Below, piece after piece: positions 9,842-32,265 of a stretch of 34,609 nt of DNA. The DNA comes from Candidatus Hydrogenedentota bacterium (lineage in GTDB: Bacteria; Hydrogenedentota; Hydrogenedentia; Hydrogenedentales; CAITNO01). The position numbers were made by a program, and so were the translations under genes. The notes under the pieces are model-generated. The model saw only the letters and a program-made list of their open reading frames with translations. It was not told where the DNA came from and searched no databases. Position 1 is the first letter of the stretch, and each line of letters opens with the position of its first letter. Location of the stretch: positions 1-34,609 of the forward strand of contig SLFT01000334.1 of NCBI GenBank assembly GCA_007124105.1, read 5' to 3'.

Positions 9842-12283
9842 ATGGATTCTACCGCATTGCCGCTTACCGTACACGCGATTGGACACGGGCATATTGATCC
9901 TACCTGGCTCTGGCGTTGGACGGAAGGTTATGAAGAGGTACGCGCCACGTTTCGCAGCGCCCTGGATAGAATGGATGAAACGGAAGACTTTATTTTCTCA
10001 GCAAGCAGCGCCTGTTTTTATCAGTGGATCAAAGAGTGCGACCCGGAACTCTTCGAGCGCATCAAGGCGCGTGTTAAAGAAGGGCGTTGGGAAATTACGG
10101 GGCCGTTCTGGGTGGAACCCGACTGCAACATTCCTTGCGGCGAATCACTGGTGCGCCACGGCTTGTATTCACAACGTTTCTTCGAGCGGGAGTTTGGGCG
10201 TCGCGCCGTGGTGGGTTTTAACCCCGACGCTTTTGGTCACGCCGGTTCCCTGCCGCAAATCCTCCAGAAACTTGGCGTTCACTACTATGTCTATATGCGG
10301 CCGGCGCCCGTGTGGGAAATGGAATATCCTGACGGCACGCTTTTTTTCTGGCAGTCACAAGACGGTTCGCGTGTGCTGGCGGCGCAAATCCCGATCGGAT
10401 ACGATGGCAGTGAAAACAATCTGCGCGAAAAGGTCGAAGGGTTGCGGCGTTATCCTTTTCTGACAGCGGGACAACGGCACATCCTTTGTTTTTACGGCGT
10501 CGGCAATCACGGCGGCGGCCCCACGCGCAAAGCGATTGCGCTGCTGGAATCCTTGCGCGACGAAGCCTCCTCAGACTACACCGTGCAATTTTCGAGCATG
10601 GAAGCGTTTTTTGAGGCATTCAAAGGGGACACGGATGAATCGAATATTCCGGTGATGCAAAATGAACTGCAACATCACGCCCGCGGTTGCTACAGCGCCC
10701 ACAGCGAAATGAAACGACTGAACCGACAGGTTGAGCATGCACTGATGAGCGCTGAGCGGTTTGCTACTGTTGCGTGGCTGCTGGGCGTTCATCCTTATCC
10801 GCACGACGCCTTTGCCAGGTGCTGGCAGGACCTGCTCTACAATCAGTTTCATGATATTATCGCGGGAACCAGTCTGGAGTTGTCTTATGAAGACACCCGG
10901 GACCAGCTGGGCGCAGCACGCCATCGGGCCGATGTAATCGCCAACGCGGCCATACAATCCATTGCGCGAAACATAGATACATCGGCTGCGGGGAACACTA
11001 TTGTAGCCATCAATCCGTTGCCCTGGCCGGTGAGCGCGCCGCTGGTCGCCCCCTCGATAACGGAACGCGGCATTGGGCGTTCCTATCACATCGTGAACGA
11101 AAACGAGGAACTGATCCCAAGCCAGGAGATACGGGGTGAACGCATAGACCATCGGCGCCGCGCCTTTCTTGCCGCCATTCCCGCGATGGGCTATCGTGTC
11201 TTTCACGCCCGACCGGAATCGCGCCGCTATAAACACGCGCTGCCCCTGGCGTATGGGCGGGATTTTCTGGAAAATATGTGGTGGCGCATCGAGTTTGATA
11301 CGCACACGGGCGCGATCACACGCTTGTTTGACAATACGCTCAAAATGGACGTTGTCACAGACGGCGCAGTGCTTGCCGCCATGGTGGACAACAGCGATAC
11401 ATGGGGGCACGACCTCACGGAATTTCGGGTGGAAGCGGGACGCTTCTCGGCCGTGGACATGCGCGTGGTGGAGGCGGGCGAAATTATGGCCACCCTGCAA
11501 ATTGTATCGCGTTACGACAGGTCGGAGGCCATCACAGAGTTTACCGTGTACCGCGACATCAATCATATCGAATACGCCATGCGCGTTAACTGGCAACAAC
11601 AGTATCAAGCGCTAAAACTTGGTTTCACAACACGCATTGAAGACGGCGCGGCCGTGTACGAGGTCCCGTATGGATTTCAGGAACGTACTGCGGACGGCTG
11701 CGAGGAGCCTGGCCAACAGTGGTTCGACTTGACGGGAACCATTGAAGGACGCCCTTACGGACTGGCCATACTGAACGATGGGAAATATGGTTTTGACGTA
11801 AAAGACGGCGTCATGCGTGTAACACTGTTGCGCAGCCCGGCCTATGCCCACCATGACAATGGACGCTTTGAAGAGACGGCCCGGTGGCCCATCATGGACC
11901 AGGGCTGGCATCAGATGCGGTTTGCCTTGATGCCTCATGAAGGCGACTGGCGCGACGCGCGCGTAGTGAAACGCGCCTGGGAATTGAACGCGCCGCCCAT
12001 TGCCCATATCGAATCCGCCCATCCCGGCCACCATAAGTTACAGGCTGGATTATTTGGCACGGAGTCAGACAACATCTTGTTAAGCGTTATCAAATGCAGC
12101 GAGGACGGTGAAGACATTATCATACGCGGCTACGAAACAGCGGGACGGCAGACGGAAACGCGTCTGCATTTGCCCTATTTCGACAAGTCCTATGACATAC
12201 ATTTTGATCCGCACGAGATCAAAACCTTGCGTGTCAACAGAGCCGCGTGGATAATAAAGGAAGTGAACCTGCTCGAAGAATAA
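9842..12283 (+). CDS. GH38 alpha-mannosidase
   Basis: GHGHIDPTWLW, EPDCNIP.GESLVR, PDAFGH...LPQIL, GVGNHGGGPT, QFHDII.GT, LLRSP motifs. Confidence 0.93.
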   Translation: MDSTALPLTVHAIGHGHIDPTWLWRWTEGYEEVRATFRSALDRMDETEDFIFSASSACFYQWIKECDPELFERIKARVKEGRWEITGPFWVEPDCNIPCGESLVRHGLYSQRFFEREFGRRAVVGFNPDAFGHAGSLPQILQKLGVHYYVYMRPAPVWEMEYPDGTLFFWQSQDGSRVLAAQIPIGYDGSENNLREKVEGLRRYPFLTAGQRHILCFYGVGNHGGGPTRKAIALLESLRDEASSDYTVQFSSMEAFFEAFKGDTDESNIPVMQNELQHHARGCYSAHSEMKRLNRQVEHALMSAERFATVAWLLGVHPYPHDAFARCWQDLLYNQFHDIIAGTSLELSYEDTRDQLGAARHRADVIANAAIQSIARNIDTSAAGNTIVAINPLPWPVSAPLVAPSITERGIGRSYHIVNENEELIPSQEIRGERIDHRRRAFLAAIPAMGYRVFHARPESRRYKHALPLAYGRDFLENMWWRIEFDTHTGAITRLFDNTLKMDVVTDGAVLAAMVDNSDTWGHDLTEFRVEAGRFSAVDMRVVEAGEIMATLQIVSRYDRSEAITEFTVYRDINHIEYAMRVNWQQQYQALKLGFTTRIEDGAAVYEVPYGFQERTADGCEEPGQQWFDLTGTIEGRPYGLAILNDGKYGFDVKDGVMRVTLLRSPAYAHHDNGRFEETARWPIMDQGWHQMRFALMPHEGDWRDARVVKRAWELNAPPIAHIESAHPGHHKLQAGLFGTESDNILLSVIKCSEDGEDIIIRGYETAGRQTETRLHLPYFDKSYDIHFDPHEIKTLRVNRAAWIIKEVNLLEE

Positions 12284-14146: not shown

Positions 14147-14824
14147 TTACAGCCCTTCATCGGCGGAGAACAGCTCAATGGGGCGGGAAGCGTTTATGAT
14201 TGCCTTGATTACCGGAGGCGGGATATGCGGCGCGGCCACCATAATCAGGGGCGTCACGCCCGTTTGCGCCTCGTAGTCATCTGCGGAGGCGATATACTTG
14301 GGAATATCGCTTGATTTAAGCGCGGCCGTGACTTCGAGCAGAATATGGGTCCCGTCGCCGCGTATGACAATATCCACTTCCCGGTTGCCGTAGTAACCGC
14401 GCTTGACGCTGTAGTTTGTTTCGCCGAGTACGCCCTGCAACGTGTTGCGCATGGTGGCTTCGTTCTGAATGCCCCAGCGCGAACCAAGCGCTGATATGCT
14501 GTCTCGTATTTCCTTAAAGCCAAGGTGCATGGTTCGAACGGTTTCTTTTTGCGCTTCGGCGAGTTCCTCGACACGGCTCTCCGTACGTTTTTGCGCTTCT
14601 GCGAGTTCCTCGACACAGCTCTCCGTACGTTTTTGCGCTTCTGCGAGTTCCTCGACACGGCTCTCCGTACGCTCTTGCGCCCGAGCAAGTTGCTGCACCA
14701 CGTCCTTCAACTCGGTAAAGTCTTCACGGAATACGCCGCGTTCCTCGCGAAGGGCCGTAACAAGATGCAGCAGAGGCGGCCGCAACTCCGCGGGAAATTC
14801 ATCTATAATATTTATCACATGCAC
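14147..14824 (-). CDS. coiled-coil repeat protein with C-terminal PD-(D/E)XK-like domain (DUF3782-like)
   Basis: GTG start with AAGGA RBS; ([14 protein letters not shown])n repeats, LGSRWG..NE, EVDIVIR...LLEVT. Confidence 0.75.
14547..14680. repeat. three near-identical 42-bp (14-aa) coding tandem repeats
   Basis: GCGCTTC.GCGAGTTCCTCGACAC.GCTCTCCGTACG begins at 14551, 14593 and 14635. Confidence 0.9.
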
Positions 14825-15000: not shown

Positions 15001-16545
15001 CTACGGTTGCTCGCAGTGCGATTCGTTTTCAAAGGCAAGCGCAGCCGTTGGACAGGCGCGTACACACGCTTCGGCCACGGAACCCAACCCCGCTTGAAGG
15101 GTTGCGCCCAGGGCGGCGCGTACACGCGACTTTACGCCTCGCCCGGCAATAGTCATTCCGGGGTCAATGCCGTATTTACGGGTGAGAGCAATGCACACAC
15201 CGCACTTGATACATTTCCCCGGTTCGAACAAAATGGCGCCGGCTCGTTCAATAGGCAGAATAATGCGGTGTGGTAGATTGCGTTTGCCGCCGAGGGTCAC
15301 GCCGTATTCTTCAGCATAAAGACGCAGCTTACAGGTGGTCGGTTGCAGACAGTCACAATGCAGGCATCGCGCCGCTTCTTTTTGCGCGGCACAAGAAAGT
15401 TCAGACGCATTGCCATCTGGCGCCGCATTCATCCCCGCGCGCGACACCATGAACAACGCGTGTTGTCCTTCGCATTCATGGCATCTCTCTTTTCGCTCGA
15501 CGGCATAGGCTTCCAGGTCGTTTTCCTCAAGGCGGCCAAGGCGCGAGTTAAACATGCGTTTTTCCTGATACTCCTCACCGGCAAACAATGCCTGGACACG
15601 CCATGCGGCACGCTTGCCCGCTGCTACCGCACGGACAGGCATTGTTTCTTCACGAGCGCCTATTATGCGTTCGTGGTTGGGCGTTTCAGCATCTTTGATC
15701 GCGAGGATTACGGCGTCGTTCTCTTCGAGGCACGTTGCCAGCGTCATAACGCTCTCTGACTGGCCCGATTCGTTCATATCCACATCCGTAGCGAGAAATG
15801 TCGCCACATTCCATATTTTCAGGAAAGCAAACTCCGCTTCGCGGATGGCATCCGGGATGCTGTCGTCCAGGCCGGGACACACCCGGTCCTCCCTTTCGTA
15901 AAGGCGGCAGGCGTGGCCGTGCTGCGCCAGGACGCGCGCAGCGGCGAGTCCCGCGAGTCCGGCCCCGATAATAGCCACTGATTTTCCGGATGCCGGCTGT
16001 GGCTGTTCCAACTTTTCGGGAAAGGTTTCTGCCGCGCCGCCATGACAGGCGCGTATTGCGAGCGCCTGGTCGTATTGCCCGCGCCGGCATATCTTCTGGC
16101 AAGGGGCGGTACAAATGCTGCCCAGTATGCCGGGAAAAATCAGGTCTTCCCGCGCGATGGTTGCGGCGTCTGCGCCCTCGCCCTGTTGCAGCCGCCGAAG
16201 CATTTGCGGCACACGCAGTCCCGCGGGACACGCCCGCTCACAGGGCCCCTCGCAATCTCCGGCGTGTTCCGCGAGCAGCAGCGCCAAGGTGTCTCGACGC
16301 AACGCGCATATTTCATCGTCATTCGTGACAATGTCCATCCCCTCCTCGGCGGCGGAAGCGCAGGCGAGCAGCGTCTTTCCGGCGGCGGCGTTCCTGACCA
16401 CGCATATCATGCAAGAGGTGAGCGCCCCAGTTTCAGGATGATGGCAGAGCGTGGGAATGGCAACGCCTGCCTCGCGGGCCGCTTCCAGCACGGTGGCGTT
16501 TTCAGCCGCGTCCACTTCGCGTCCATCTATTTTAAGTCGGGGCAT
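15001..16545 (-). CDS. NuoG/HydA-N-like Fe-S subunit with inserted, internally shortened GltD/NfnB-like flavin domain
   Basis: IPTLCHH...SCMIC...C [2Fe-2S]; EH..DCEGPCERACP...GSICTAPCQKIC (GltD-type Fe-S); IIGAGLAG; EAARCLHCDC....C; CIKCGVC...CVRACP. Confidence 0.85.
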   Translation of the reverse strand: MPRLKIDGREVDAAENATVLEAAREAGVAIPTLCHHPETGALTSCMICVVRNAAAGKTLLACASAAEEGMDIVTNDDEICALRRDTLALLLAEHAGDCEGPCERACPAGLRVPQMLRRLQQGEGADAATIAREDLIFPGILGSICTAPCQKICRRGQYDQALAIRACHGGAAETFPEKLEQPQPASGKSVAIIGAGLAGLAAARVLAQHGHACRLYEREDRVCPGLDDSIPDAIREAEFAFLKIWNVATFLATDVDMNESGQSESVMTLATCLEENDAVILAIKDAETPNHERIIGAREETMPVRAVAAGKRAAWRVQALFAGEEYQEKRMFNSRLGRLEENDLEAYAVERKERCHECEGQHALFMVSRAGMNAAPDGNASELSCAAQKEAARCLHCDCLQPTTCKLRLYAEEYGVTLGGKRNLPHRIILPIERAGAILFEPGKCIKCGVCIALTRKYGIDPGMTIAGRGVKSRVRAALGATLQAGLGSVAEACVRACPTAALAFENESHCEQP

Positions 16546-18909
16546 TTATTCCACCTTTACTGCGTTTACGGGACACACGTCAACGCAGCCGTTACACTGA
16601 ACGCATGTTTCCTGGTCAATCAGATGGGCTTCATACGGCGTCGCTGTAATCGCGCCAGAGGGACAGGCCTGTGCGCATTTGGTGCAGCCGATGCATGTGT
16701 CGGCGTCTATGGTGTACGTAAGCAAGGGGCGACACTTCTTGGCCGGGCAACGTCCGTGGATATGCGCCTCGAATTCGTCCCGGAAATGACGCAGCCCGGT
16801 AAGCACCGGGTTGGGCGCGGTCTTGCCGAGGCCGCACAGGCTTTGTTGTTGGATGACTTCGGCCAGCCGCGTGAGGGCGTCAAGGTCCACTGTATCGCCC
16901 CTGCCCGCGCAAAGGTTGTCGAGCATGGTCAGCAGCTGCGCGGCGCCCACGCGACAGGGTACGCATTTGCCGCAGGATTCCATTTGCGTAAACTCGAGGA
17001 AGTAACGGGCCATCTCGACAATACAGTCGGTGTCGTCCATGACAACCAGGCCGCCTGATCCCATCATGGCGCCCGCTTCAGTCAGCGCTTCATAGTCCAC
17101 AGGCAGGTCGGCCAGCGACGCGGGGATGCAGCCGCCCGACGGGCCGCCTATCTGTACAGCCTTGAACGTGTGCCCCTCGGTAACGTCGCCGCCGGCCTCT
17201 TCCACAATCTGGCGGATGGTCATGCCCATGGGCACTTCGATGAGGCCGCCATGATTGATTTTCCCGGCCAGCGCGAAAACTTTCGCGCCCGGGCTGGTTG
17301 GCGTACCGAGGGCCGCGAAGGCTTCCGGACCGTTCCGGAATATCCAGGGGACCATGGCCAGCGTTTCCACATTGTTCACCAGCGTGGGTTTGCCGTTCAG
17401 GCCGCTGTAGGCCGGGAAGGGTGGACGGAACCGGGGCGAAGGGCGTCGCCCCTCGAGCGACACAATCAGGGCGCTTTCCTCGCCGCATACAAAAGCGCCC
17501 GCGCCTTCGCGCACTTCAGCGTCGAAAAACCGTCCGTCTCCAAGCGCGTTATCTCCGAGCAGACCGGCATTGCGACATTGATCCAATGCAAGGCGCGTAC
17601 GCTCCACGGCCATGGGGTATTCAGAGCGCACATAAAATATACCTTGTTCCGCGCCAACTGCGGCCGCGGCGATGAGCATACCTTCAATGACCCGGTAAGC
17701 GAAGGACTCTAGTAACATGCGGTCCATGAACGCGCCCGGGTCGCCCTCGTCGCCGTTGCAAATAATATATTTCGTGCTGTTGACGGCATTGCGTACGATA
17801 CGCCATTTCTCCGCTGTAGGGAATCCCGCGCCGCCGCGCCCGCGCAAGCCGCTTTTTTCAATCACGTCAATGATGGCATCGCCATTGAGGGGCGCGCCGG
17901 GTTCCGCTGCGGCCATGTCCAGGCAGCGGCGCAGCGCGGCGAAGCCGCCGAGCCGAATATATTCTTCCAGATCGGCGGGGTTCGTCTCGCCCGAGTGTTC
18001 CGTAGCGATGCGACATTGTATGTTCAGGAAATGGGTGATATCCGGTTCACGCGGCGCGACACGGCGCACAGGCGATTCGCTTTCACCCGCGTAAAGTTTT
18101 TCCAGGCGGCGTTCGGCGGCGGCGCGCAGTCGTCCAAACGCGCCGGGCGGTGGGATATGCCGCAGCAGGATGTCACTCACGGCGTCGGTCGTCACTTTGG
18201 TATAGGTGTAAATCTCTTCATCGGGCACAGCAATTTCGATGAGCGGGAGCAGGTGACATAACCCCACACAACTGACTGGTTTCACAACAGCGGGCAACCT
18301 GTAACGCGCCAGCGTTTCGTCCACCACATCACGGATGCGTCCGTTGCCGCCGGCGATACAACACGAGTCAAGACATATCCTTATTTCCGGCGGCGCGTCC
18401 GGCAGGGGACGGGGCCGCCCTTTTTCATCGGCCGCAGCCGCAGTGGCGCGTTCAAAGTCTTCGATCATTTCAAGGACGGTATCCGGTCGCACATGGCCGT
18501 AGGTGATGCCGTCAATCTGTACGGCGGGCGCCAGTGTGCAACAGCCCAGACATTGCACCTTCTGTACCGTATATTGACCCCGCGCATCGGTATCCGCGCC
18601 CGGCGCAATGTCCAGCGCTTTGAGTGAAGCGTCAAAAACGCGCTCGGCGTCTTTCAGATGGCAGGCGGTGCCGTCGCACACGCAGATGGTATGCCGCCCG
18701 CCGGGAGTATCGCGAAACATGGGGAAGAAAGACGCGACGCCGTCGAGATCAGCGGGGGTTATCTCCGTAACGTCGCTGATGCGGCGCAACGCCTCGGGCG
18801 GCAGCCAACGAAAAAGGCGCTGCACGTCCTGCAGGATGGGCAACAGCGCCTGTCTGTCTCGTCCATGTGTTTCGATAATGCGGTCAACTTCGCGCAGGTC
18901 AACATCCAT
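16546..18909 (-). CDS. NuoE-NuoF (HydC-HydB / BfuC-BfuB) fusion, FMN/NAD(H)-binding Fe-S flavoprotein
   Basis: CDGTAC...CLGCC (NuoE); second Trx-like site CLDSCC...CVGLC; GRGGAGFPT, NGDEGDPGAFMDR, GAFVCGEE, GGPSGG, ESCGKCVPCR...SLCGLG; C-terminal 2x[4Fe-4S]. Confidence 0.92.
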   Translation of the reverse strand: MDVDLREVDRIIETHGRDRQALLPILQDVQRLFRWLPPEALRRISDVTEITPADLDGVASFFPMFRDTPGGRHTICVCDGTACHLKDAERVFDASLKALDIAPGADTDARGQYTVQKVQCLGCCTLAPAVQIDGITYGHVRPDTVLEMIEDFERATAAAADEKGRPRPLPDAPPEIRICLDSCCIAGGNGRIRDVVDETLARYRLPAVVKPVSCVGLCHLLPLIEIAVPDEEIYTYTKVTTDAVSDILLRHIPPPGAFGRLRAAAERRLEKLYAGESESPVRRVAPREPDITHFLNIQCRIATEHSGETNPADLEEYIRLGGFAALRRCLDMAAAEPGAPLNGDAIIDVIEKSGLRGRGGAGFPTAEKWRIVRNAVNSTKYIICNGDEGDPGAFMDRMLLESFAYRVIEGMLIAAAAVGAEQGIFYVRSEYPMAVERTRLALDQCRNAGLLGDNALGDGRFFDAEVREGAGAFVCGEESALIVSLEGRRPSPRFRPPFPAYSGLNGKPTLVNNVETLAMVPWIFRNGPEAFAALGTPTSPGAKVFALAGKINHGGLIEVPMGMTIRQIVEEAGGDVTEGHTFKAVQIGGPSGGCIPASLADLPVDYEALTEAGAMMGSGGLVVMDDTDCIVEMARYFLEFTQMESCGKCVPCRVGAAQLLTMLDNLCAGRGDTVDLDALTRLAEVIQQQSLCGLGKTAPNPVLTGLRHFRDEFEAHIHGRCPAKKCRPLLTYTIDADTCIGCTKCAQACPSGAITATPYEAHLIDQETCVQCNGCVDVCPVNAVKVE

Positions 18910-18914
18910 GGCTA

Positions 18915-20666
18915 TTATTGTTCCTCAATGCAGATCAGCGACGTCTCCGTACGCGCGTAAATGCGCCCATTTACAAACGCCGGCGTGGCCACGGTTGTTT
19001 CTTCGAATGTGGGGCGGGCAATCTCTTTGTATTCCTCTGCGTTTTCAAAAATCAATACGCGCCCGTCCATGTCTATGGCATAGATGCGATTGCCCACCAG
19101 GATAGGCGAGGCATAGAAGGGTTCGTCATGTTCATGGACCCACACGATTTCGCCATCCTCCGGACGCAGCCAGACGATCTCGCCGCGCGAGGTAAGCAGG
19201 TAAAAAAATGTATCCGTGGCGAGAGGACTGGCCACGTCCGGCAGGGACTCATAGAATTGCCACAGGATTTCGGGTTCGGCGTCCCCGTCGGCATCGGCGT
19301 CCGGCAGGCGAATAGCGGAGGCGTCAGCGTATTCGTTTGCCACGAAAAACAGACCCGCGCCGTAAGCCGGGCTCGGGCCAACCTCGCCCGCAAGAGAGTC
19401 CACCGACCACAGCAACGCGCCCGTGCGCGGGTTATACACGTCCATGTCGCGTGTGGACACCACCACCAGCAAAGGCGCATCGGGCATACCCACTAGAATA
19501 GGCGACGCCCACGAGATGCGTTCGCGCTCCTGTTTCCAGACCTCAGTTCCGTCGCGCAGGTCAAAAGCGAACAACGCGCCCTCCTGGCGCTGGTCATATT
19601 GCACGATGAGCAGGTCTTCGTAAATAATCAGCGACGATGAATGGCCGTAATGGTTATCGGGAACGCCCAAATGCTTTTCCCAAAGAATACCGCCGTTGTG
19701 ATCGAGGCAGGCCAGGTGGCCCGTGCCGAAGACAGCGCAGACGACATTGCCTTGCGCCGCCACGGTGGGCGCGGCCCAGCCTGTGTCGTCGTTCACACGG
19801 GGCGGTTCCACCGGTATACGGGTTCCGATGGGCGTTCGCCACAGTAGATCGCCCGTATCAGCGTCAAAAGCGTACACTTCACGGCGGTCCTCATCGGCGC
19901 CGCTCAGGTAAACCCGGTCGCCCCAGACCACCGGCGAGTTGAACCCCGGCAAGGGCGGCGCGACTTTCCAGCGGATATTTTTGCCCGACGCAACGTCCCA
20001 GCTGGTAGGCGCGTTGGTATGCCGTGCAACGCCATAGCCGCCCGGCCCCCGGAAAGACGGCCATTGGTCAAGCGCCTCTTCCCATGAGGGGACGACCAGT
20101 TCCAAGTCTTCTGGCGCGGCAATGGCTTCTTCCTCGGCGGCGGCCAGTTCGGCTTCCGTCGGCAATGGAATATCGAGACGGGTGAACACGGCGGCGAGCA
20201 ACGCGGCGAAAAGCCACAAGCCGCCCATGAACATCAGCAACTCACGCGCCCGGGCCTGATCCGTCCAATAATACTTCTGGGGCGTTTCGGCGGTGGGCGC
20301 CGGCAACCGGGGCCGACAATTGGCGGCGACGCGCAACGCCGCAGCGAAGGTCAACCCCGCAATCAGCGCCAACAGTCCGCCGATGCGCAGCATCCGCTGA
20401 CTGGTGAAAAATGCGGCGCGCGCCAACAGGTCCAGATTTCGGATGGCGTCAATGGTTTCAGCATCCGTTTCAGATGAACCGGTCACTTGCGAACGCAACC
20501 GCGCCAGATCGGGATGCTCGAGTGTATCAATACCGCGAACCTGCCAGTAATTGACAATCAGCAGCGACGATACAACAAGACAAAATAAACCGGACACTGT
20601 TGCAACAACAACAGCCGCGCGCAGTAGTACGTCGTTGGTCTTAAAACGTGTTTGTTCTTTTTGCAT
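18915..20666 (-). CDS. membrane-anchored (3 TM) PQQ-like/BamB-like beta-propeller protein
   Basis: Start at ATG 20666 (AAGGA RBS); three hydrophobic helices, then WPSFRGP, NIRWK, SPVVWGDRVY, AFD..TG..LW repeats, ASPIL, ATPA. Confidence 0.85.
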   Translation of the reverse strand: MQKEQTRFKTNDVLLRAAVVVATVSGLFCLVVSSLLIVNYWQVRGIDTLEHPDLARLRSQVTGSSETDAETIDAIRNLDLLARAAFFTSQRMLRIGGLLALIAGLTFAAALRVAANCRPRLPAPTAETPQKYYWTDQARARELLMFMGGLWLFAALLAAVFTRLDIPLPTEAELAAAEEEAIAAPEDLELVVPSWEEALDQWPSFRGPGGYGVARHTNAPTSWDVASGKNIRWKVAPPLPGFNSPVVWGDRVYLSGADEDRREVYAFDADTGDLLWRTPIGTRIPVEPPRVNDDTGWAAPTVAAQGNVVCAVFGTGHLACLDHNGGILWEKHLGVPDNHYGHSSSLIIYEDLLIVQYDQRQEGALFAFDLRDGTEVWKQERERISWASPILVGMPDAPLLVVVSTRDMDVYNPRTGALLWSVDSLAGEVGPSPAYGAGLFFVANEYADASAIRLPDADADGDAEPEILWQFYESLPDVASPLATDTFFYLLTSRGEIVWLRPEDGEIVWVHEHDEPFYASPILVGNRIYAIDMDGRVLIFENAEEYKEIARPTFEETTVATPAFVNGRIYARTETSLICIEEQ

Positions 20667-20731
20667 TGTATTCCTTGCTAACGCCCACCAGGGAATATAG
20701 ATCATCGTTATAACGCGCGTACAAGGCGGCT

Positions 20732-20765
20732 AGTATAACACAGCATTTTAATTGTTGAACAAGAG
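20732..20765 (-). promoter_or_regulatory. possible internal promoter for the propeller-NuoEF-NuoG sub-operon
   Basis: Extended -10 TGtTATACT (20740-20732) in an AT-rich 115-nt gap; -35 element poorly defined. Confidence 0.4.
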
Positions 20766-20781
20766 CCTAAGAACGTGCTGA

Positions 20782-22068
20782 TTATTTCTCCGGCGGCTCG
20801 ACTGGACAATACTTGAAGCAGCGGGCGCAGCTGAGACACGCCCCCTTGTCTATGGTGTAGTCGCGGGCGTGACGCAGCACGGACAGGCGGAACAGGCGCG
20901 CGCACAGGGCGATGCCCATAAACGCGCCCAGTGCGGCGCCGGCGACCTTAAAGCGTTCATTGAGCGCGTGGGCCTCGGCATAAAGGACAGTTGCGGGTTC
21001 GTCGCCTTCGCGGAAGGCCTCGCTCTCTGTGGTCATTTCATCGTAAACGCCCGCTTCTTCGGCGGCGATGCGCTCGGCGAGGCGCACGGTGGGATGCATG
21101 CGCGACAACGTGGGATGAGCGCTCCATCCGATGCCCGCCGCGAACAAAATGGCTATCGGCGCGACAAGCAGCAGTTTGCCCAGCCGCAGCGCCCCTGCCC
21201 TGCGCGGTTCGGCGTCGGCGGGTTCAGGCGGAATAATGGCGTTATAAGGGCACGCGTTTTCACACAGGCGGCATTGTACGCATTCATCGGGCGTGATGGT
21301 AGCGTGACGCCGCGCAAAGATGGCGATCCAGCGCAGCAACACGCCGTAGGGGCATAAGTAGCGGCAGTAGGGACGGGCAATAAAAATGCCTGCGCCCAGG
21401 ATAATCCCGCCCGCCAGAAGCATGTTAAAACTGCCGCCCAATCGGAAGAATCCGACAAAGGGGTCATAGCGGCATATAAGGAACCCGGCGCCCACGGCCA
21501 CGCCCATTACGGTGATGCCGAGATAGAGATAGGCGAGCATGCCCAGCGCGGCATCCACCGGCTTGGGCACCTGCACCGGATGCACCGCGAAGATTTCCTG
21601 GGCAGCGCCCAACGGGCACGCCGCCGCGCAGAACACACGTCCAAAATACAAGGCGGCAACAAGGGGCAACAGAAAGAAAGCGGCCACCAGAAACGTCAGC
21701 ACATGGCCGGTGCCGATATAGGCGTTTAATACATTTTGCAGTGAACCCACCGAACAGACGCAGCCCTGCCGATAAAAACCGAAGTAGGCCAGCGCAAAGA
21801 AGGACAGGGCCAATACCCAGTTGCGCGACCGGCGGCGCAGTACAGCCCACGCCGTGAGCGCCAGTACTCCTGTCAGCAGCGCAATATCCAGCCAGGGCGG
21901 CGTCAATGCGTCCGGCGGCAGGTGCATGTCTTCGTGTTCGTAGCCCGTGCTGAACTCCGGCATGGGGAACCGAAACTCCGCGTTGGCCGTACCAGTCAAT
22001 AACGCCGACCATAAAAGCAGGAAGAGCACTACCCTTCTGTATACTATAGCGCGTTTCCCCATGGCCAT
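20782..22068 (-). CDS. polytopic membrane 4Fe-4S protein (NapH/MauN/NosR C-terminal-like)
   Basis: Multiple TM helices; GCVCSVG, GRVFCAAACPLG, RPYCRYLCPYG; CVQCRLCENACP and CLSCARCFKYCP. Confidence 0.88.
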   Translation of the reverse strand: MAMGKRAIVYRRVVLFLLLWSALLTGTANAEFRFPMPEFSTGYEHEDMHLPPDALTPPWLDIALLTGVLALTAWAVLRRRSRNWVLALSFFALAYFGFYRQGCVCSVGSLQNVLNAYIGTGHVLTFLVAAFFLLPLVAALYFGRVFCAAACPLGAAQEIFAVHPVQVPKPVDAALGMLAYLYLGITVMGVAVGAGFLICRYDPFVGFFRLGGSFNMLLAGGIILGAGIFIARPYCRYLCPYGVLLRWIAIFARRHATITPDECVQCRLCENACPYNAIIPPEPADAEPRRAGALRLGKLLLVAPIAILFAAGIGWSAHPTLSRMHPTVRLAERIAAEEAGVYDEMTTESEAFREGDEPATVLYAEAHALNERFKVAGAALGAFMGIALCARLFRLSVLRHARDYTIDKGACLSCARCFKYCPVEPPEK

Positions 22069-22628
22069 CAGGCGCCTTCCCCAGCGTTTTCATCGTACTT
22101 CAATACATAGGCGCGGCTCAGCGGGATACGTTCGATGGCGTTCGAGGGACAATCGCGCGCGATGGCGCATTCATTACAGTGAGCGCAGAGATCGCGCTTG
22201 ATTTGCAGATAAAGCGACCCGTTGCCAAACTGGCCGCAGCCTTTCACGCATTTCCCACAACCGATGCACAAGTCCTCGTCAATGGAATAGGCGAAATAGG
22301 GTTCTTCCACAAAACGGCGCGTAATGGCTGCTGTGGGGCAGAGTTCGTTCTCGGCGCCCGTGTCCAGCGCGGGCGCGGCGGGTTGCAGATAGCCGCTGCA
22401 CAAGTCGCAGTAGCCGCATATCTTTGTGGCGTGTACACATTTCACCGCCGAGGGGTTCAGTACGCAGTGCGTGGCGCAACGACCGCATTGGGTGCATTTG
22501 TGTGGGTCTATCTGCCACACCCACTTTTCCGCCGACGGCGATGCGGCCATCCAGACCCCGCCGCCAAGAGCGGCCACGGCGGCGGCGCGTATGAATTCGC
22601 GGCGGCCAGGTTTCGTCTCCGTACTCAT
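22068..22628 (-). CDS. Tat-signal polyferredoxin (NapG/MauM-like role)
   Basis: GRREFIR twin-arginine motif plus hydrophobic stretch; CTQCGRCATHC, CGYCDLC, CP, CIGCGKCVKGC, CAHCNEC....CP; TGATG overlap with the next gene. Confidence 0.85.
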   Translation of the reverse strand: MSTETKPGRREFIRAAAVAALGGGVWMAASPSAEKWVWQIDPHKCTQCGRCATHCVLNPSAVKCVHATKICGYCDLCSGYLQPAAPALDTGAENELCPTAAITRRFVEEPYFAYSIDEDLCIGCGKCVKGCGQFGNGSLYLQIKRDLCAHCNECAIARDCPSNAIERIPLSRAYVLKYDENAGEGA

Positions 22629-23674
22629 TCTTTTTCCTTTCCTGCGTCAATCGGCTCAAAGACCAGTATGGCGCGCAAGGGGCCGTGCAACACCAGGATA
22701 CGGTCATTGGTGTCCACGGCCAGGTCGCGAATGGGCGCCGGGTCAGCCGGGAACTCCGCGGCGTTCCAGCCCGCGTTCAAATGTTCCGACGTTGCCGCCA
22801 CGCCGGCAAAGGAGCGGTCGGCGGCAAAGGTCTTCACGCGATTGATGCCCTTCTCCGCTGTTACCAACGTACCGTTGCTCTTAAACGCAATATGGATGGG
22901 ATTGCAGCAGCCGGGAAACTGATGCGTCGCGAAACCCGGCTGATGCCAGGCGGTCAGCAACGCGCCGTCCGCGCGGTATTTTTCCACCCCGAGTTTTCCC
23001 GGGTTGGAAACCCACAATGCGCCCATTGCGTCAAAGGCCACATCCAAATAGTGACTTGGAACAACGAATCCGATACTATCCCGTTCAGGATCGCGCTCAC
23101 CGATTGTATTTAGTATTTGACCGTCATGGGTATAGCGATAAACGCGCGCATTGCCCGCATCGGCGACAAACACATGGTTTTCATCCACCACAATTTCGGT
23201 GGTCCAGGCGCGTTCGCCCAGGGTTTCCCAGTTGGTGTGATGTTCTCCCGTGTCGCTGAATACAGCCAGATGGTCGCGCATACCGAGATACATCGTACCG
23301 TCCGGCGCTACGGCAACACAGTCAGGGCGCCCATCAATCTCATGGCGCGCCTGTTCGCGTCCTGTTTCGTCCAGCATGAGCAACGCCCCCTCGCCTGTTG
23401 CCCACAGGCGACCTTCGCTGTCTACAGCGAGTCCGGAGGGATTGTCCAGTTCCAGCGCGATGCGCGCCGTCTCATGGTAGCGCACATCGTCATCAGCCAC
23501 GGCCTCGTAGCGCGAAACATCATATACCAGCGCTTCGCCCGGTTCGTCGGGACGGTCCGTCATGAACAGCGCAAGCGTCAACGCCACCACCGCGATGGCG
23601 AGAACCGCCCACGCCCAGTCAGGTATCATTCTTTGTTGTTTATGCTGCATGGGATTTTCTTTGTAAGGAAACAT
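22625..23674 (-). CDS. membrane-anchored NHL-repeat beta-propeller protein with GCCNP motif
   Basis: N-terminal TM; NHL-like repeats (PSGLAVDSEGRLW, PDCVAVAPDG, VFVADAGNARV, DVAFDAMG.LWVSNPG, DLAVDTNDRILVL); ATGA overlap with the ferredoxin gene. Confidence 0.82.
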   Translation of the reverse strand: MFPYKENPMQHKQQRMIPDWAWAVLAIAVVALTLALFMTDRPDEPGEALVYDVSRYEAVADDDVRYHETARIALELDNPSGLAVDSEGRLWATGEGALLMLDETGREQARHEIDGRPDCVAVAPDGTMYLGMRDHLAVFSDTGEHHTNWETLGERAWTTEIVVDENHVFVADAGNARVYRYTHDGQILNTIGERDPERDSIGFVVPSHYLDVAFDAMGALWVSNPGKLGVEKYRADGALLTAWHQPGFATHQFPGCCNPIHIAFKSNGTLVTAEKGINRVKTFAADRSFAGVAATSEHLNAGWNAAEFPADPAPIRDLAVDTNDRILVLHGPLRAILVFEPIDAGKEKE

Positions 23675-23741
23675 CCCTGTTCCGGTATATTATTTCGCGC
23701 CGCTTTTCACGGATAAACAGCGCTATGGTGTGTCATACGCC

Positions 23742-24821
23742 TCAATCTTGTTCAGCAAGACGCGCGGCACGGTCGGCCACATTGAGCGCGTCAAGCAAGT
23801 CATCGAGGTCGCCTTCAAGAATCTCGCGCAATTTGTAAAGCGAGAGTTGGATGCGATGGTCAGTGACTCGGTTTTCGGGGAAATTATAGGTGCGGATTTT
23901 TTCGCTGCGGTCGCCCGTACGCACCTGGCTGCGGCGGTCCTCGGCGCGCGCGTCTGCGCCCTCACGAATTTTGATGTCCAGCAACCGCGCGCGCAACACG
24001 CGCAACGCCTGCGCCTTGTTTTTGTGTTGCGATTTTTCGTCCTGGCACATCACGACCAGGCCGGTGGGCTTATGGGTAATGCGCACGGCGGAATCAGTGG
24101 TGTTTACGCTCTGACCGCCCGGCCCCGAGGAACGGTACACGTCAATCTGCAAATCGTTGGGGTCAATGGCGACATCCACTTCCTCCGCTTCAGGCAGCAC
24201 GGCCACTGTCACGGCGGATGTGTGAATGCGCCCCTGCGTTTCCGTGTCAGGCACGCGCTGCACCCGATGTACGCCGCCCTCCCATTTCATCAGGCTGTAC
24301 ACGCTGTCGCCAGTGATTTGGAAACAGACTTCCTTGAATCCGCCCAGTCCCGTGGGATTCGAGTTCATCACCTCGATTTTCCAGCCGCGAATCTCGGCAA
24401 ATCGGGAATACATGCGGAACAGGTTGGCGGCAAACAAGCCCGCTTCTTCTCCGCCGGTGCCCGCTCTTATCTCCACGATGGTATTCTTTTCGTCGTTGGG
24501 ATCCTTAGGCACGAGAAGCAGACGTAATTCCTCCTCGCGTCCTTCCAACGACACCTTCAACCGGTCGTACTCTTCGTGAGCAAACGCGAGCATTTCCGGA
24601 TCGGTTTCATCGCGGATTACCCGCTGTGCCTCACGCAACCCTTCTTCCTCGCGTTGATATCGCGCAAATGCCTGCACCAGGTCAGACAGCTCCGCATATT
24701 TGCGGGCGTGTTTCTGGTACACATCGGGATTCATGGCCACTTCGGGCGTGGCCATGGTATCAGCCAGACGCTGATGATCGGCTGTAAGCGCCTCGAGTTT
24801 CTCGCGCAATCGCGCTTCCAT
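23742..24821 (-). CDS. prfA: peptide chain release factor 1
   Basis: EIRAGTGGEEA, HRVQRVPDTE (PxT motif specific to RF1), GPGGQSVN, RTYNFP. Confidence 0.97.
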   Translation of the reverse strand: MEARLREKLEALTADHQRLADTMATPEVAMNPDVYQKHARKYAELSDLVQAFARYQREEEGLREAQRVIRDETDPEMLAFAHEEYDRLKVSLEGREEELRLLLVPKDPNDEKNTIVEIRAGTGGEEAGLFAANLFRMYSRFAEIRGWKIEVMNSNPTGLGGFKEVCFQITGDSVYSLMKWEGGVHRVQRVPDTETQGRIHTSAVTVAVLPEAEEVDVAIDPNDLQIDVYRSSGPGGQSVNTTDSAVRITHKPTGLVVMCQDEKSQHKNKAQALRVLRARLLDIKIREGADARAEDRRSQVRTGDRSEKIRTYNFPENRVTDHRIQLSLYKLREILEGDLDDLLDALNVADRAARLAEQD

Positions 24822-25225: not shown

Positions 25226-25446
25226 CATGAGAACGGATGCATTCGGCCTTCTGTTTCTGCGCGTCCGCGTCTTCTTTTTGACGGAGCGAGTGTGGATGAC
25301 CCCCGGCGACGGGCCGGGAAATTATTGGATAGGATGCTCTTGCAGCGATAGGGTATACTGCCGTTAATGTTTTTGTCTGCCGAACATACGGTAGATTTCA
25401 ACTTTAATGCAAGCGTACGATGCGAAAGACAAGGGAGGTATCTACC

Positions 25447-28104
25447 ATGTATTGCAGCCCATTCAATCAGGCATACAGAGCGCGCCTGTGCAGGACGCGT
25501 CTGGCGCTGTGTTTTCTGCTTGTTATGACGGCATGGCCGGGGGTTGGCCTGACGACGCCTTTTGAGACGGTGCTGGACACGGCGCTGGAGCATGACGACG
25601 GCGCGTTTCTGTGGTTTCACCCCCGAGCAACGGCGATACCCGACGCCGGCGAGGACGGGGCTCCTGCCGTAGTAATGACATTGCAGAAGCATTTGCAGGT
25701 ATCGGATTTTTATTCAGGGTTGTACGCCATGTACAGCGACGATCTGGGCAAGTCCTGGACCGGCCCCGAGGCCATACCTGAACTGGCCTGGCGCGACGGC
25801 CCAGACGACACGATCCTGGCGGTGTGCGACGTAACGCCGGGATATCATCCGCCCACGGGCAAGGTGCTGGCCATTGGCGCACAGCTTTATTATCGCCCGG
25901 ACGGGCAGCTGCTCGAGGGTGTCGCGCGTTCCGATCAGACGGCCTATGCCGTCTATGATCCCGAGACCCGATCATGGTCGGGCTGGCGCACGCTTGCCAT
26001 GCCCGACGCTCGGAAGTTCAATTTCGCGCGGAACGCCTGCGCCCAATGGATTGTCGAGCCTGACGGGACGTTGCTTGTACCCTTGTATTTCGGCGAGAGC
26101 GCTGGACAGGATTTTTCCGTTACAGTGGCGCGCTGCGCTTTTGACGGCGAAACCCTGCGCTATGTGGAACACGGCACGGAGATGACCGTATCGGGCGGAC
26201 GCGGCCTGTGCGAGCCGTCTCTGGCCCGCCATTATGACCGCTATTTCTTGACATTGCGCAACGACGCCCGGGGCTATGTTGCTGCAAGCGATGACGGGCT
26301 GCATTACGAGCCGATCCAATCCTGGCGGTTTGACGACGGCGAGGACCTGGGATCATATAACACGCAACAGCATTGGCTTACTCATACGGACGGGTTGTAT
26401 TTGACCTATACGCGGCGGGGCGCCAACAACGACCATGTATTCCGCCATCGCGCGCCGCTGTTCATTGCCCGGGTTAACCCGGACACCCTGCGGGTTGTTC
26501 GTGATACGGAGCGGATACTTATCCCTGAGCGCGGCGCCACGCTCGGCAATTTCGGCGCGGCAGCCATCACGCAGGAGGAGTCATGGGTCACCGTGGGCGA
26601 GGGTGTCTGGAACGACGACATGCGCGCGCGCGGCGCGGCGGGCGCGTTGTATATTGCCCGGGTGCAGTGGACATCTCCGAACGACACCGTCATGTTTCCC
26701 GCGCCGACACAGCGCGCCCGGATGACGACAGTGGACCTGAATCAAGACGAAACGAAGACCATAGCACTGGTGGACGGCAGCGCAGCGACAATCACATTGC
26801 TGGGCGTTGCGGAGCAGCGCGACGCCATCCGCGAAGTGGTGCGCCACGCCGAGGCGTCACTGTGCGTGAACAGCGACACGGTTAGCGTGGCCTCGGGCCT
26901 TTACAATCTGCCTGTGCGGGCGGGCGGCGTGTGGGTGGACTGTCCCGTGACCCAGAGCTACAACCTGAACAGCGGCGACGACCGCTGGCGACTGGATAAG
27001 GACGCGCGCATCCGGCTATGGCCTGGCGATGGGCCGTTCACCGACCCCGACTCCTTCGTTTATCCCATACGCCAACGCTGGTATGCGTCGCAGACCTGGT
27101 TTGACAACGAGCCGGTGGACGGCGGCGCCGAAGTATCCAAAACAGTGTATTACCATTCCGGTATTGACATTGGCGGCGTGGACGGGCGCACCGAGATTGT
27201 GGCGGCGGCCGATGCGCTGGTGGTATCCGCGCGCGACGACACCCTGCCCGGCTTCCTTGGCGACACCCCTGTAAACCCCCGTTACGACGTGGTCTACCTC
27301 TATGACGAGCGCGGTTGGTTCTACCGCTACAGTCATTTTGACGCGATAGACGCCGCGATACAACCGGGCGTACGCGTCACCCGAGGCGCGTTGCTGGGAC
27401 GGCTCGGCAAGGAAGGCGCCAGCGGCGGCTGGAGCCACCTGCACTTCGAGATCAAGACGCGCCAGCCAAGCAACGGATGGGGTACACTCGCCGCCAATGC
27501 GCTCATCCGCGAGGCTTACATGCGCGAATACGAACCGGACATCCTCGCTTGTGCGCGGCAGCGGCACTTGATTATGCCGGGCGACACAATCACGCTTGAC
27601 GGATCGCGTTCATGGAGCCGCGACCCCATTGTCGCCTATCACTGGCAGTTTACCGACGGAGAAACGGCCGAGGGCGTACAGGTCGAGCGGCAGTACACCC
27701 GTCCCGGCAGGTTTAGCGAAATTCTGCGAATTACCGACGCGGCGGGACGGGTGGACTACGACTTTGCTATTGTGCAGGTACTCAATCCCGATGAGCCGCA
27801 TCGTTACGCCCCGGGTCTGCACGCCGCGCATGAACCCACCCTGAATCTTCGCGCCGGCGATCCCGTTACCTTTTCAGTGCGCGCGTTCCGCTTCGGCGAC
27901 GGCGAGGAGACGTGGGATTTCGACGATGGCAGCCCCACGCAACGCACCCGCTCGGGCATCAACAAAGACCCCCACGCGCCCGACGGATACGCTTTCATTG
28001 AACATCGCTATGCCGCGCCGGGCAGCTACATTGTCAGCGTATACCGCGAAGACACCGACGGCACACCCGCCCATGCTCATCTGCATGTTGTCGTGGAAGA
28101 GTAA
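25447..28104 (+). CDS. secreted multidomain protein: BNR/sialidase-like propeller + M23 peptidase-like domain + two PKD domains
   Basis: ATG 25447 after GGGAGG; signal peptide; Asp-boxes SDDLGKSW and SDDGLHY; YHSGID and HLHFE (M23 HxxxD/HxH); WQFTDG and WDFDDG...H.Y..PG.Y (PKD). Confidence 0.85.
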   Translation: MYCSPFNQAYRARLCRTRLALCFLLVMTAWPGVGLTTPFETVLDTALEHDDGAFLWFHPRATAIPDAGEDGAPAVVMTLQKHLQVSDFYSGLYAMYSDDLGKSWTGPEAIPELAWRDGPDDTILAVCDVTPGYHPPTGKVLAIGAQLYYRPDGQLLEGVARSDQTAYAVYDPETRSWSGWRTLAMPDARKFNFARNACAQWIVEPDGTLLVPLYFGESAGQDFSVTVARCAFDGETLRYVEHGTEMTVSGGRGLCEPSLARHYDRYFLTLRNDARGYVAASDDGLHYEPIQSWRFDDGEDLGSYNTQQHWLTHTDGLYLTYTRRGANNDHVFRHRAPLFIARVNPDTLRVVRDTERILIPERGATLGNFGAAAITQEESWVTVGEGVWNDDMRARGAAGALYIARVQWTSPNDTVMFPAPTQRARMTTVDLNQDETKTIALVDGSAATITLLGVAEQRDAIREVVRHAEASLCVNSDTVSVASGLYNLPVRAGGVWVDCPVTQSYNLNSGDDRWRLDKDARIRLWPGDGPFTDPDSFVYPIRQRWYASQTWFDNEPVDGGAEVSKTVYYHSGIDIGGVDGRTEIVAAADALVVSARDDTLPGFLGDTPVNPRYDVVYLYDERGWFYRYSHFDAIDAAIQPGVRVTRGALLGRLGKEGASGGWSHLHFEIKTRQPSNGWGTLAANALIREAYMREYEPDILACARQRHLIMPGDTITLDGSRSWSRDPIVAYHWQFTDGETAEGVQVERQYTRPGRFSEILRITDAAGRVDYDFAIVQVLNPDEPHRYAPGLHAAHEPTLNLRAGDPVTFSVRAFRFGDGEETWDFDDGSPTQRTRSGINKDPHAPDGYAFIEHRYAAPGSYIVSVYREDTDGTPAHAHLHVVVEE

Positions 28105-32158: not shown

Positions 32159-32265
32159 CACCAGGCGCATGGGCCAACCGCAACGTTTGAAAACCAAAGC
32201 GTCCGACGGAGGGTCAAATGGTTCGTAAACGCAAACGAAAAACCATGAACGGAGATATTTTTACT

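Follow-up and report, generated by a model that had tools for sequence, protein, structure and literature searches.

A conserved six-gene cluster of Candidatus Hydrogenedentota and other anaerobic bacteria that combines a trimmed Nfn-type Bfu core with a NapH-like membrane arm and propeller proteins

To our knowledge, all Bfu-type bifurcating enzymes characterised so far are soluble. Those nearest to the genes described here are of the Nfn-Bfu type, represented by NfnABC and by the Sporomusa-type enzyme StnABC (PDB entries 9bov, 9n5u and 8oh5). The Sporomusa-type enzyme is cited in the survey of Schut et al. 2022 (PMC9304861), whose main text predicts only two membrane-bound Bfu enzymes, Nuo-Bfu and Mbh-Bfu, and leaves 17 BfuB clades unassigned. 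On the membrane side, the nearest described systems are the modules of NapGH/NosGH/NosR type, and passages of Méheust et al. 2021 (PMC8238504) propose NapH-like modules as modular transmembrane electron carriers for the propeller enzymes NirS, ExaA and Nos (NosZ). Here we describe six genes at positions 15001-23674 of a contig of 34,609 nucleotides from a Candidatus Hydrogenedentota bacterium (SLFT01000334.1, assembly GCA_007124105.1; the whole stretch is referred to as the window). The six-gene set looks like a new combination of the Bfu family with NapH-like modules and an apparently undescribed route for low-potential electrons across the membrane. Full-text literature searches returned no description of it. 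The parts of the Hydrogenedentota Bfu paper used here (PMC11406978) deal with hydrogenase-linked clusters only and do not mention NapH, propellers or PQQ, the corresponding parts of the Caldithrix genome paper (PMC5317091) do not mention the cluster, and the main text of PMC9304861 contains no mention of a propeller, the periplasm or NapH.

The genes are the six minus-strand open reading frames (ORFs) of this region, labelled g1 to g6 in the order of transcription:

g1, 22625-23674, minus strand, 349 residues: six-bladed NHL propeller, membrane-anchored, predicted to be periplasmic (Pfam, structural model)
g2, 22068-22628, minus strand, 186 residues: Tat (twin-arginine)-exported polyferredoxin of NapG-like design (motifs, Pfam Fer4 families)
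g3, 20782-22068, minus strand, 428 residues: NapH-like integral membrane Fe-S protein (Pfam Fer4_5)
g4, 18915-20705, minus strand, 596 residues: three-helix anchor and eight-bladed propeller of BamB/PQQ_2 type (Pfam, structural model)
g5, 16546-18909, minus strand, 787 residues: BfuC-BfuB (NuoE-NuoF) fusion (Pfam, alignment to solved BfuB chains)
g6, 15001-16545, minus strand, 514 residues: trimmed BfuA/NfnA (Pfam, phmmer search of the PDB, alignment of 44 sequences)

A sequence-only reading of this DNA, made by a model from the letters and their ORFs, had described six co-oriented genes with tight junctions and had proposed the same order of families; the ORFs and the junction sequences bear out the former and the Pfam domains the latter. 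As read in the sequence, g1 and g2 overlap by ATGA (22625-22628), g2 and g3 meet in TGATG (22066-22070), g4 and g5 are separated by 5 nucleotides (TAGCC, 18910-18914) and the TAA of g5 abuts the ATG of g6 (16546/16545). The spacer between g3 and g4 is 76 nucleotides long, or 115 if g4 starts at Met14, whose ribosome-binding site is better. Contigs from three further runs, belonging to two studies, bridge the junctions (17731-21988, 20461-22782, 20181-20908 from the second study, and 20769-23911), and thus the contiguity of the cluster is not an assembly artefact; for the same reason an assembly chimera at the g3/g4 joint was considered and dropped. Within g5, at 17510-17910, the summed contig depth rose to 55-218, compared with about 5-15 elsewhere, in all four runs, with many loose ends at 17718/17758; here the conserved NuoF core probably draws in contigs of other organisms.

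The likeness to Nfn-Bfu resides in the pair g5 and g6, for which the chains of these enzymes are the best PDB matches and with which they have the BfuBC core motifs in common. Pfam divides g5 into 2Fe-2S_thioredx, Complex1_51K, NADH_4Fe-4S and two Fer4 domains, and its cofactor-bearing parts are arranged as follows:

g5 residues 9-152, 18454-18885, minus strand: [2Fe-2S] domain of NuoE/BfuC type (PF01257, E 3e-43, 147.6 bits)
g5 residues 350-716, 16762-17862, minus strand: NuoF core for flavin mononucleotide (FMN) and NADH, SLBB domain and N3-type 4Fe-4S (PF01512, PF10531, PF10589)
g5 residues 732-785, 16555-16716, minus strand: C-terminal 2x[4Fe-4S], the ferredoxin-side clusters of BfuB (PF00037/PF14697, aligned to solved BfuB C-termini)

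Residues 175-787 of g5 match the BfuB chains 9bov_B, 9n5u_B, 8oh5_B and 7t2r_B over their full length (E 1e-177 to 4e-194), and the match takes in the loops for FMN and NADH and the His/Cys motif as well as the [2Fe-2S] domain at the N-terminus and the 2x[4Fe-4S] at the C-terminus. The core domains PF01512 and PF10589 scored 148.6 and 108.7 bits, with GRGGAGFP and ESCGKC..C aligned to the solved BfuB chains; the motifs of the extra clusters are present as well (CLDSCC...C.GLC in residues 179-218 and two CxxCxxCxxxCP in 739-781), and the motif of the His/Cys site, AHIHGRCPAKKC, aligned with its counterpart in 9bov_B and 9n5u_B. The extra features of BfuB, that is the N-terminal [2Fe-2S], the C-terminal 2x[4Fe-4S] and the His/Cys site, are described in passages of PMC9304861 as not occurring in non-bifurcating homologues. 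At the level of sequence motifs, g5 thus represents an intact BfuC-BfuB fusion in which no cofactor motif of the bifurcating Bfu core is lacking. In a tree, the g5 proteins linked to the cluster (24 sequences from at least 8 phyla) lay on one side of a branch with support 100/99, opposite 17 BfuB paralogues, all of which came from Hydrogenedentota genomes, authentic NfnB sequences not being included. Besides g5, the genome of the window encodes five or more BfuB-like proteins with 54-58% identity to the g5 core (contigs C198, C134, C317 and C267; loci L221, L226, L230, L233 and L235), in line with the numerous Bfu hydrogenases described from this phylum.

In g6, Pfam recognises Fer2_4 and Fer4_20 (PF14691 and PF13510) and a single Rossmann fold, and the best PDB matches found by phmmer are the A subunits of Nfn-type enzymes (9bov_A, 9n5u_A, which is NfnA, and 8oh5_C). 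The protein has the layout of the BfuA of Nfn-Bfu, where a [2Fe-2S] at the N-terminus precedes an inserted NfnB-like domain (2x[4Fe-4S] and flavin) and further 4Fe-4S motifs. The two differ in what lies between and behind these parts. Residues 3-282 and 387-503 of g6 align to residues ~5-287 and ~556-700 of the NfnA/StnC-type chain, with ~200 residues of the chain skipped, and g6 residues 282-387 face residues 287-585 of 9n5u_A, where the second, GGGNTAMD-type fold of the chain has no counterpart. Thus, g6 is devoid of the NADP(H) Rossmann fold (~200 residues) and of the C-terminal pterin-like domain with A4/A5, and both domains are lacking in 44/44 g6 orthologues. The gene organisation also differs from that of Nfn-Bfu, in that BfuC and BfuB are fused in g5 and the genes stand beside those of membrane and periplasmic proteins. 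All Fe-S cysteines of g6 were invariant among the 44 orthologues (34/45/48/62, 98/102/106/145/149/153, 394/397/399/405 and 445/448/451/498), and two regions of the protein are of particular concern here:

g6 residues 394-498, 15052-15366, minus strand: C394/C397/C399/C405 and C445/C448/C451/C498, invariant (aligned to the 4Fe-4S region of NfnA, ~556-700)
g6 residues 189-238, 15832-15981, minus strand: sole dinucleotide-binding fold, GAGLAG, the next GG being CP in the window's copy (Pfam, alignment)

According to passages of the study of C. saccharolyticus NfnABC (PMC11829005), the working path of that enzyme runs NADPH-FAD-A7-A6-A3-A2-A1-B1 and the A4-A5 pterin branch is a remnant. By this comparison g6 is an NfnA cut down to an electron wire, which has kept the cluster motifs A7-A6-A3-A2-A1 and lost the NADP(H) and pterin-like domains; with neither the NADP(H) domain nor the A4-A5 branch, the protein would therefore retain no site for a soluble third substrate. 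The sequence-only reading had likewise seen no intact third-substrate module, and indeed g6 has no NADP(H) Rossmann fold, H-cluster, NiFe site or pterin domain. Its label of a NuoG/GltD hybrid named the right family and missed that the protein is a cut-down NfnA of the Nfn-Bfu type. We also considered g5-g6 as an ordinary NfnABC and dropped this candidate. One g6 orthologue (G001:C64:1394-2866, 64% identity) has an in-frame TGA inside the match, and single in-frame stops occur in g4 orthologues of G054 and G105 (TGA) and of G052 (TAG); such stops may reflect sequencing errors, pseudogenes or recoding.

The linkage of the two halves of the cluster was examined in two scans, from which locus counts were taken for the best 80 matches each. 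A scan with the g4 alignment, one genome per species, matched 599 stretches, 590 of which encode a relative, and a g6-based scan of metagenomes matched 598 stretches, 485 of them with relatives. At g4 loci, room was taken to mean at least 4.2 kb after g4 for g5-g6, at least 3.3 kb before it for g1-g3, and at least 9.5 kb after it for the additional genes discussed below. Where there was room, g4 was followed by g5 and then g6 in 60/65 loci and preceded by g1-g2-g3 in order in 59/63; all six genes stood in order in 46 of the 51 loci with room on both sides. Seen from g6 on metagenome contigs, g5 was present in 47/47 cases, g4 in 35/36 and g1-g5 in 26/30. This is the gene-neighbourhood comparison that the sequence-only reading had proposed, and it found all six families together across loci of many phyla; the synteny in other genomes and the common phylogenetic profile of the halves, on which that reading had staked its case, both emerged. 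Among 126 Hydrogenedentota genomes (at least 80% complete), both g4 and g6 occurred in 73, g4 only in 1, g6 only in 0 and neither in 52, with g6-type genes in 73 genomes and g4-type in 74. Since the gene order recurs across phyla, the cluster is far beyond chance, and the functional coupling of the g1-g4 half with the g5-g6 half is well supported by these comparisons.

The best 80 loci of the g4 scan carry the labels Hydrogenedentota, many Bacteroidota, KSB1, Calditrichota, Latescibacterota, Aminicenantes/Acidobacteriota, Spirochaetaceae, Pontiellaceae, Chlorobiota and others, and the full cluster is found in the cultured Bacteroidota Sunxiuqinia elliptica (L095), Ancylomarina euxinus (L075) and Gaoshiqia sediminis (L110). 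Among 20 loci of relatives, nine showed the complete set in its order, and contig ends cut short most of the remainder. In 5/5 genomes where g1-g4 or g4 stand alone, g5-g6 lie on another contig; the genes downstream of an isolated g1-g4 are unrelated (serpin, NAGLU, helicase, proteins without Pfam domains), and no alternative donor module replaces g5-g6 at these loci. Full six-gene clusters are also present in records labelled Bathyarchaeia (L040) and Nitrospirales (L053). Because the L053 copy of g5 falls among the Hydrogenedentota sequences in the tree, its record may have been binned or labelled wrongly, or the cluster may have been transferred recently. In some Bacteroidales a gene for a protein of 128 residues lies between g4 and g5 and shows no link to the system.

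The membrane part of the cluster resembles the NapGH/NosGH/NosR-type modules: g3 is a Fer4_5 protein with two CX3CP and two ferredoxin motifs, and its partner g2 is a Tat-exported polyferredoxin. In g3, the Fer4_5 match (53 bits against a threshold of 22) is accompanied by seven hydrophobic segments, by the CX3CP pairs C147/C151 and C235/C239, by CxC (C103/C105) and by ferredoxin-type four-cysteine motifs at 263-273 and 411-421, and all of these cysteines were invariant in 44 orthologues. The protein g2 carries the twin-arginine signal RREF, its 17 cysteines fall into four ferredoxin-type motifs, and RRx[FLIV] was present in 50/51 orthologues. The models of NapH, NapG and NosR nevertheless score the cluster proteins far below cut-off, for instance g3 with NF007013 (33.2 vs 234) and TIGR02163 (31.7 vs 213) and g2 with the NCBIfam NapG model NF007012 (19.5 bits vs 269). 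A profile search with g3 found no solved relative of its membrane part. The window encodes neither NapA nor another Nap subunit, NosZ or NirS, nor do the conserved neighbours at the 80 loci include a Nap subunit. A further difference is that, in the passages of PMC8238504 considered here, NapH-like modules are defined by flavinylation, whereas the six-gene cluster has neither an FMN-binding domain nor ApbE. Nine loci outside Hydrogenedentota (L056, L069, L074, L076, L083, L085, L088, L102 and L109) encode between g1 and g2 a protein of 70-85 residues that starts with a twin-arginine-like RRxFL and has a single helix and four cysteines (C-x5-C-x2-C-x5-C); the window lacks it, and neither Pfam nor NCBIfam gave a match to it.

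The two propellers flank this pair. For g1 (Pfam NHL/SGL, a single hydrophobic helix at residues 21-39), AlphaFold2 gave a six-bladed propeller with a predicted local distance difference test (pLDDT) score of 91, and its Foldseek matches are generic NHL domains. In the alignment of orthologues, the motif F-x-G-C-C-N-P-x-H at residues 253-261 is invariant, and GCCNP was found in 45/46 of them. For g4 (Pfam PQQ_2, 121 bits; helices 32-50, 106-130 and 156-174) the model has eight blades and a pLDDT of 85.5, and by fold it comes closest to BamB, YxaL and tetrathionate hydrolase. The nearest known counterparts of g4 are BamB and PQQ_2 propellers without a cofactor, such as tetrathionate hydrolase; in superposition BamB ranked first and tetrathionate hydrolase took ranks 9 and 16. 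ESM Atlas returned BamB/PQQ_2 clusters only. Unlike BamB, g4 has three helices, no lipobox and a motif of its own, DNHYGHSSSL, which is specific to the g4 family and not found in the paralogous propellers of the cluster, and its TIGR03300 score is 54.9 against a cut-off of 285.2. The possibility that g4 is a true quinoprotein was considered and dropped. Its TIGR03075 score is 32 against a cut-off of 480, and among the folds, with BamB at the top, a PQQ alcohol dehydrogenase comes only at rank 48. In the window's genome (82.8% complete) PqqE gave no match above cut-off and PqqC no match, control genomes being likewise unmatched for PqqC.

We consider it fairly probable that the six genes encode a membrane-spanning redox complex of Bfu type. 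Its cytoplasmic head would be an Nfn-type Bfu core, in which g5 and g6 assemble like NfnABC, with NADH used at the FMN of g5 and ferredoxin at its C-terminal clusters, and the membrane arm would replace NADP(H) as the third partner. The free A7/flavin end of g6 may dock on g3 and pass electrons to the two 4Fe-4S motifs of g3 that are presumably cytoplasmic, by analogy with the topology of NapH. From there, electrons could travel through g3 (the CX3CP pairs and C103/C105/C199) to g2 across the membrane, where g2 would lie beside the membrane-anchored propellers, and finally reach a partner at g1 or g4. Thus, the proposed donor is the cytoplasmic Bfu core, whereas that of the NapGH type is quinol. 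The design is reminiscent of Nuo-Bfu and Mbh-Bfu as presented in the main text of PMC9304861, in that a Bfu core sits on a membrane module and the third partner is a quinone or a membrane enzyme; those enzymes, however, use complex-I-like or Mbh-like modules that pump ions, and here their place is taken by a NapH-like Fe-S protein, an exported ferredoxin and propellers. Outward flow seems favoured, because the lineages concerned make NADH and reduced ferredoxin and an outside-positive membrane potential favours outward electrons; this is reasoning rather than a result. NADH and reduced ferredoxin would then be confurcated to reduce an extracytoplasmic acceptor, an electron sink for fermenters, although the reverse direction could also be used. 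A complex prediction for g3 with g6 from two alignments scored 0.10 and 0.00, compared with a mark of 0.32, and carries no weight either way.

Several observations weigh against such a complex. The fold searches with g1 and g4 led to NHL and BamB folds of a generic kind, not to a redox enzyme, and in the models both proteins look like binding scaffolds (NHL domains, BamB) in which a known site for a redox cofactor was not recognised. The docking end of g6 is less clear in the window's copy, in which the FAD motifs are degenerate (GG to CP and VFAxG to IIGAR). The FAD fold of g6 has GxGxxG and the acidic residue, and outside Hydrogenedentota also GG and T..T....VFAxG; in Hydrogenedentota ~30 further residues are lost, and with the CP in the window's copy flavin binding is doubtful here. 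The proposed complex also offers no explanation of why confurcation would be energetically needed. Furthermore, the cluster is not always one operon. Among the five of 65 loci without g5/g6 after g4, L046, L061 and L073 lack them, and L097 and L104 show a rearrangement or fall under the threshold; in three sister species of the window's genus (G001, G002 and G003) g1-g3 lie on contigs other than that of g4(-g5-g6), and G002 is also broken between g4 and g5, leaving three pieces, with three PQQ_2 paralogues preceding g1. Finally, the window's genome encodes MenA (212.7 bits), which is above cut-off in 116/126 genomes of the phylum, and a quinol route into g3/g2, as thought for NapGH, may therefore exist. 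MenA at this frequency does not discriminate carriers of the cluster from non-carriers. MqnA/D were not found in the window's genome.

The break points between g3 and g4 and between g4 and g5 in several genomes, together with MenA, would fit the view that the halves form two enzymes that are inherited together and physically separate, a soluble Bfu-type g5-g6 and a menaquinol-dependent, NapGH-like periplasmic g1-g4, which have only a pathway or a regulon in common. The third substrate of g5-g6 would then be a small cytoplasmic molecule or a protein acting at an exposed flavin or at the A7 end of g6, and the FAD motifs kept in g6 outside Hydrogenedentota make it possible that a soluble substrate has access to a flavin site there. 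The adjacency of g6 to g5 and g4 and the joint profile across the 126 genomes are, however, tighter than is usually seen for genes that merely share a pathway; no substrate domain is recognisable in g6, whose flavin motifs decay in Hydrogenedentota while the Fe-S motifs stay invariant. The cytoplasmic ferredoxin motifs of g3 would, moreover, be superfluous in a pure quinol dehydrogenase. We regard two separate enzymes as unlikely.

MenA in the phylum could also be read as pointing to a non-bifurcating NADH (or ferredoxin):menaquinone oxidoreductase, in which g5-g6 feed g3 and g3 feeds the quinone, with g2 and the propellers as accessories. NapH is regarded as a quinone-interacting subunit in the relevant passages of PMC8238504, and quinones are among the third substrates predicted for Bfu enzymes in the main text of Schut et al. 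(PMC9304861). Against this stand the N-terminal 2Fe-2S, the C-terminal 2x4Fe-4S and the His/Cys motif kept by g5, which by the same text are lacking in non-bifurcating homologues, and the retention of the Tat-exported, four-cluster g2 (to judge by the conserved g1-g3 order and the twin-arginine counts given above), which suggests a periplasmic end point. This explanation appears very improbable to us.

The Bfu-type membrane-spanning complex that we favour would not stand by itself. When the neighbours of the 80 loci were clustered, we found PQQ_2 paralogues in the same orientation (271 proteins, spread over 78 loci and with g4 counted in), a glycosyltransferase of family GT4 in 42 loci, an ABC (ATP-binding cassette) ATPase in 33 and an FtsX-type permease of ~960-1100 residues in 39. 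Where there was room after g4 (51 loci), GT4, ABC and FtsX genes were present in 37, 37 and 38 loci, respectively. The ATPase is nearest to LolD/MacB/YbbA, below cut-off, and the extra propellers carry signal peptides or lipoboxes and no DNHYGHSSSL. In the NCBIfam comparison g1-g6, GT4, ABC, FtsX and the propeller paralogues all stayed below curated cut-offs. FtsX occurred in 72 of the 126 Hydrogenedentota genomes, including 70 of the 73 with both g4 and g6, and the three such genomes without it are each at most 84% complete. In the window's genome the block of GT4, propeller, ABC and FtsX is on another contig (C8). The six genes thus form the centre of a wider conserved set to which further propellers, GT4 and ABC-FtsX belong, a point that the sequence-only reading had missed. 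The ABC-FtsX pair may have a parallel in NosDFY, the ABC system of nos.

These neighbours raise the alternative of a machine for envelope biogenesis or maturation, in which the scaffolds, GT4 and the LolD/MacB-type ABC-FtsX build or repair a component of the envelope and the electron chain supplies periplasmic reducing power, for example to the vicinal cysteine pair of g1. Apart from the frequency of GT4, ABC and FtsX after the cluster and the phyletic profile that FtsX shares with it, this would fit the split cluster of one genome, in which g5-g6 remain with GT4-PQQ-ABC-FtsX, as well as the scaffold folds and the conserved CC motif of g1. A full Bfu core with ferredoxin-side clusters would, however, be a costly supplier for housekeeping reduction, and neither the window nor the clustered neighbours of the loci include a part resembling thioredoxin, DsbD or CcdA. 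We hold this alternative to be quite unlikely.

The remainder of the window consists of unrelated housekeeping genes. A gene for a peptide chain release factor lies upstream of the cluster, and directly downstream of g6 a gene for a DUF3782 and PD-(D/E)XK_10 protein (14147-14824, minus strand) occupies the place that GT4 has in other Hydrogenedentota, and may mark the rearrangement that moved GT4-ABC-FtsX. The other features recorded in the window are the following:

9842-12283: GH38 alpha-mannosidase
25420-28104, plus strand: protein of 894 residues with a peptidase M23 domain and two PKD domains
30797-33633: two GFO/IDH/MocA oxidoreductases

At gathering thresholds, Rfam gave 0 matches in the window and five loci, and so no riboswitch clue.

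Taken to its full extent, the proposal would be a trans-membrane confurcating complex in which a Bfu core and a NapH-like wire deliver electrons near or below -400 mV to the periplasm with the help of the membrane potential, for a low-potential reduction by a cofactor-poor propeller (the candidates being g1 with its vicinal cysteines and g4 with its His motif), assembled or assisted by a MacB-type mechanotransducer and a glycosyltransferase, in at least 10 phyla of anaerobic sediment bacteria. In this complete form the picture is tentative and rather doubtful. What can be said plainly is that the cluster has been kept together in hundreds of anaerobic bacteria of many phyla, and the cultured Bacteroidota that carry it make the system testable. 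If a NapH-type wire is indeed the third partner of a Bfu core, bifurcation or confurcation would be extended to the periplasm, and NapH-like proteins, whose cytoplasmic Fe-S clusters have long been without a partner, would gain a defined cytoplasmic donor. It would also mean that abundant and mostly uncultured sediment phyla carry out a low-potential reaction outside the cytoplasm.

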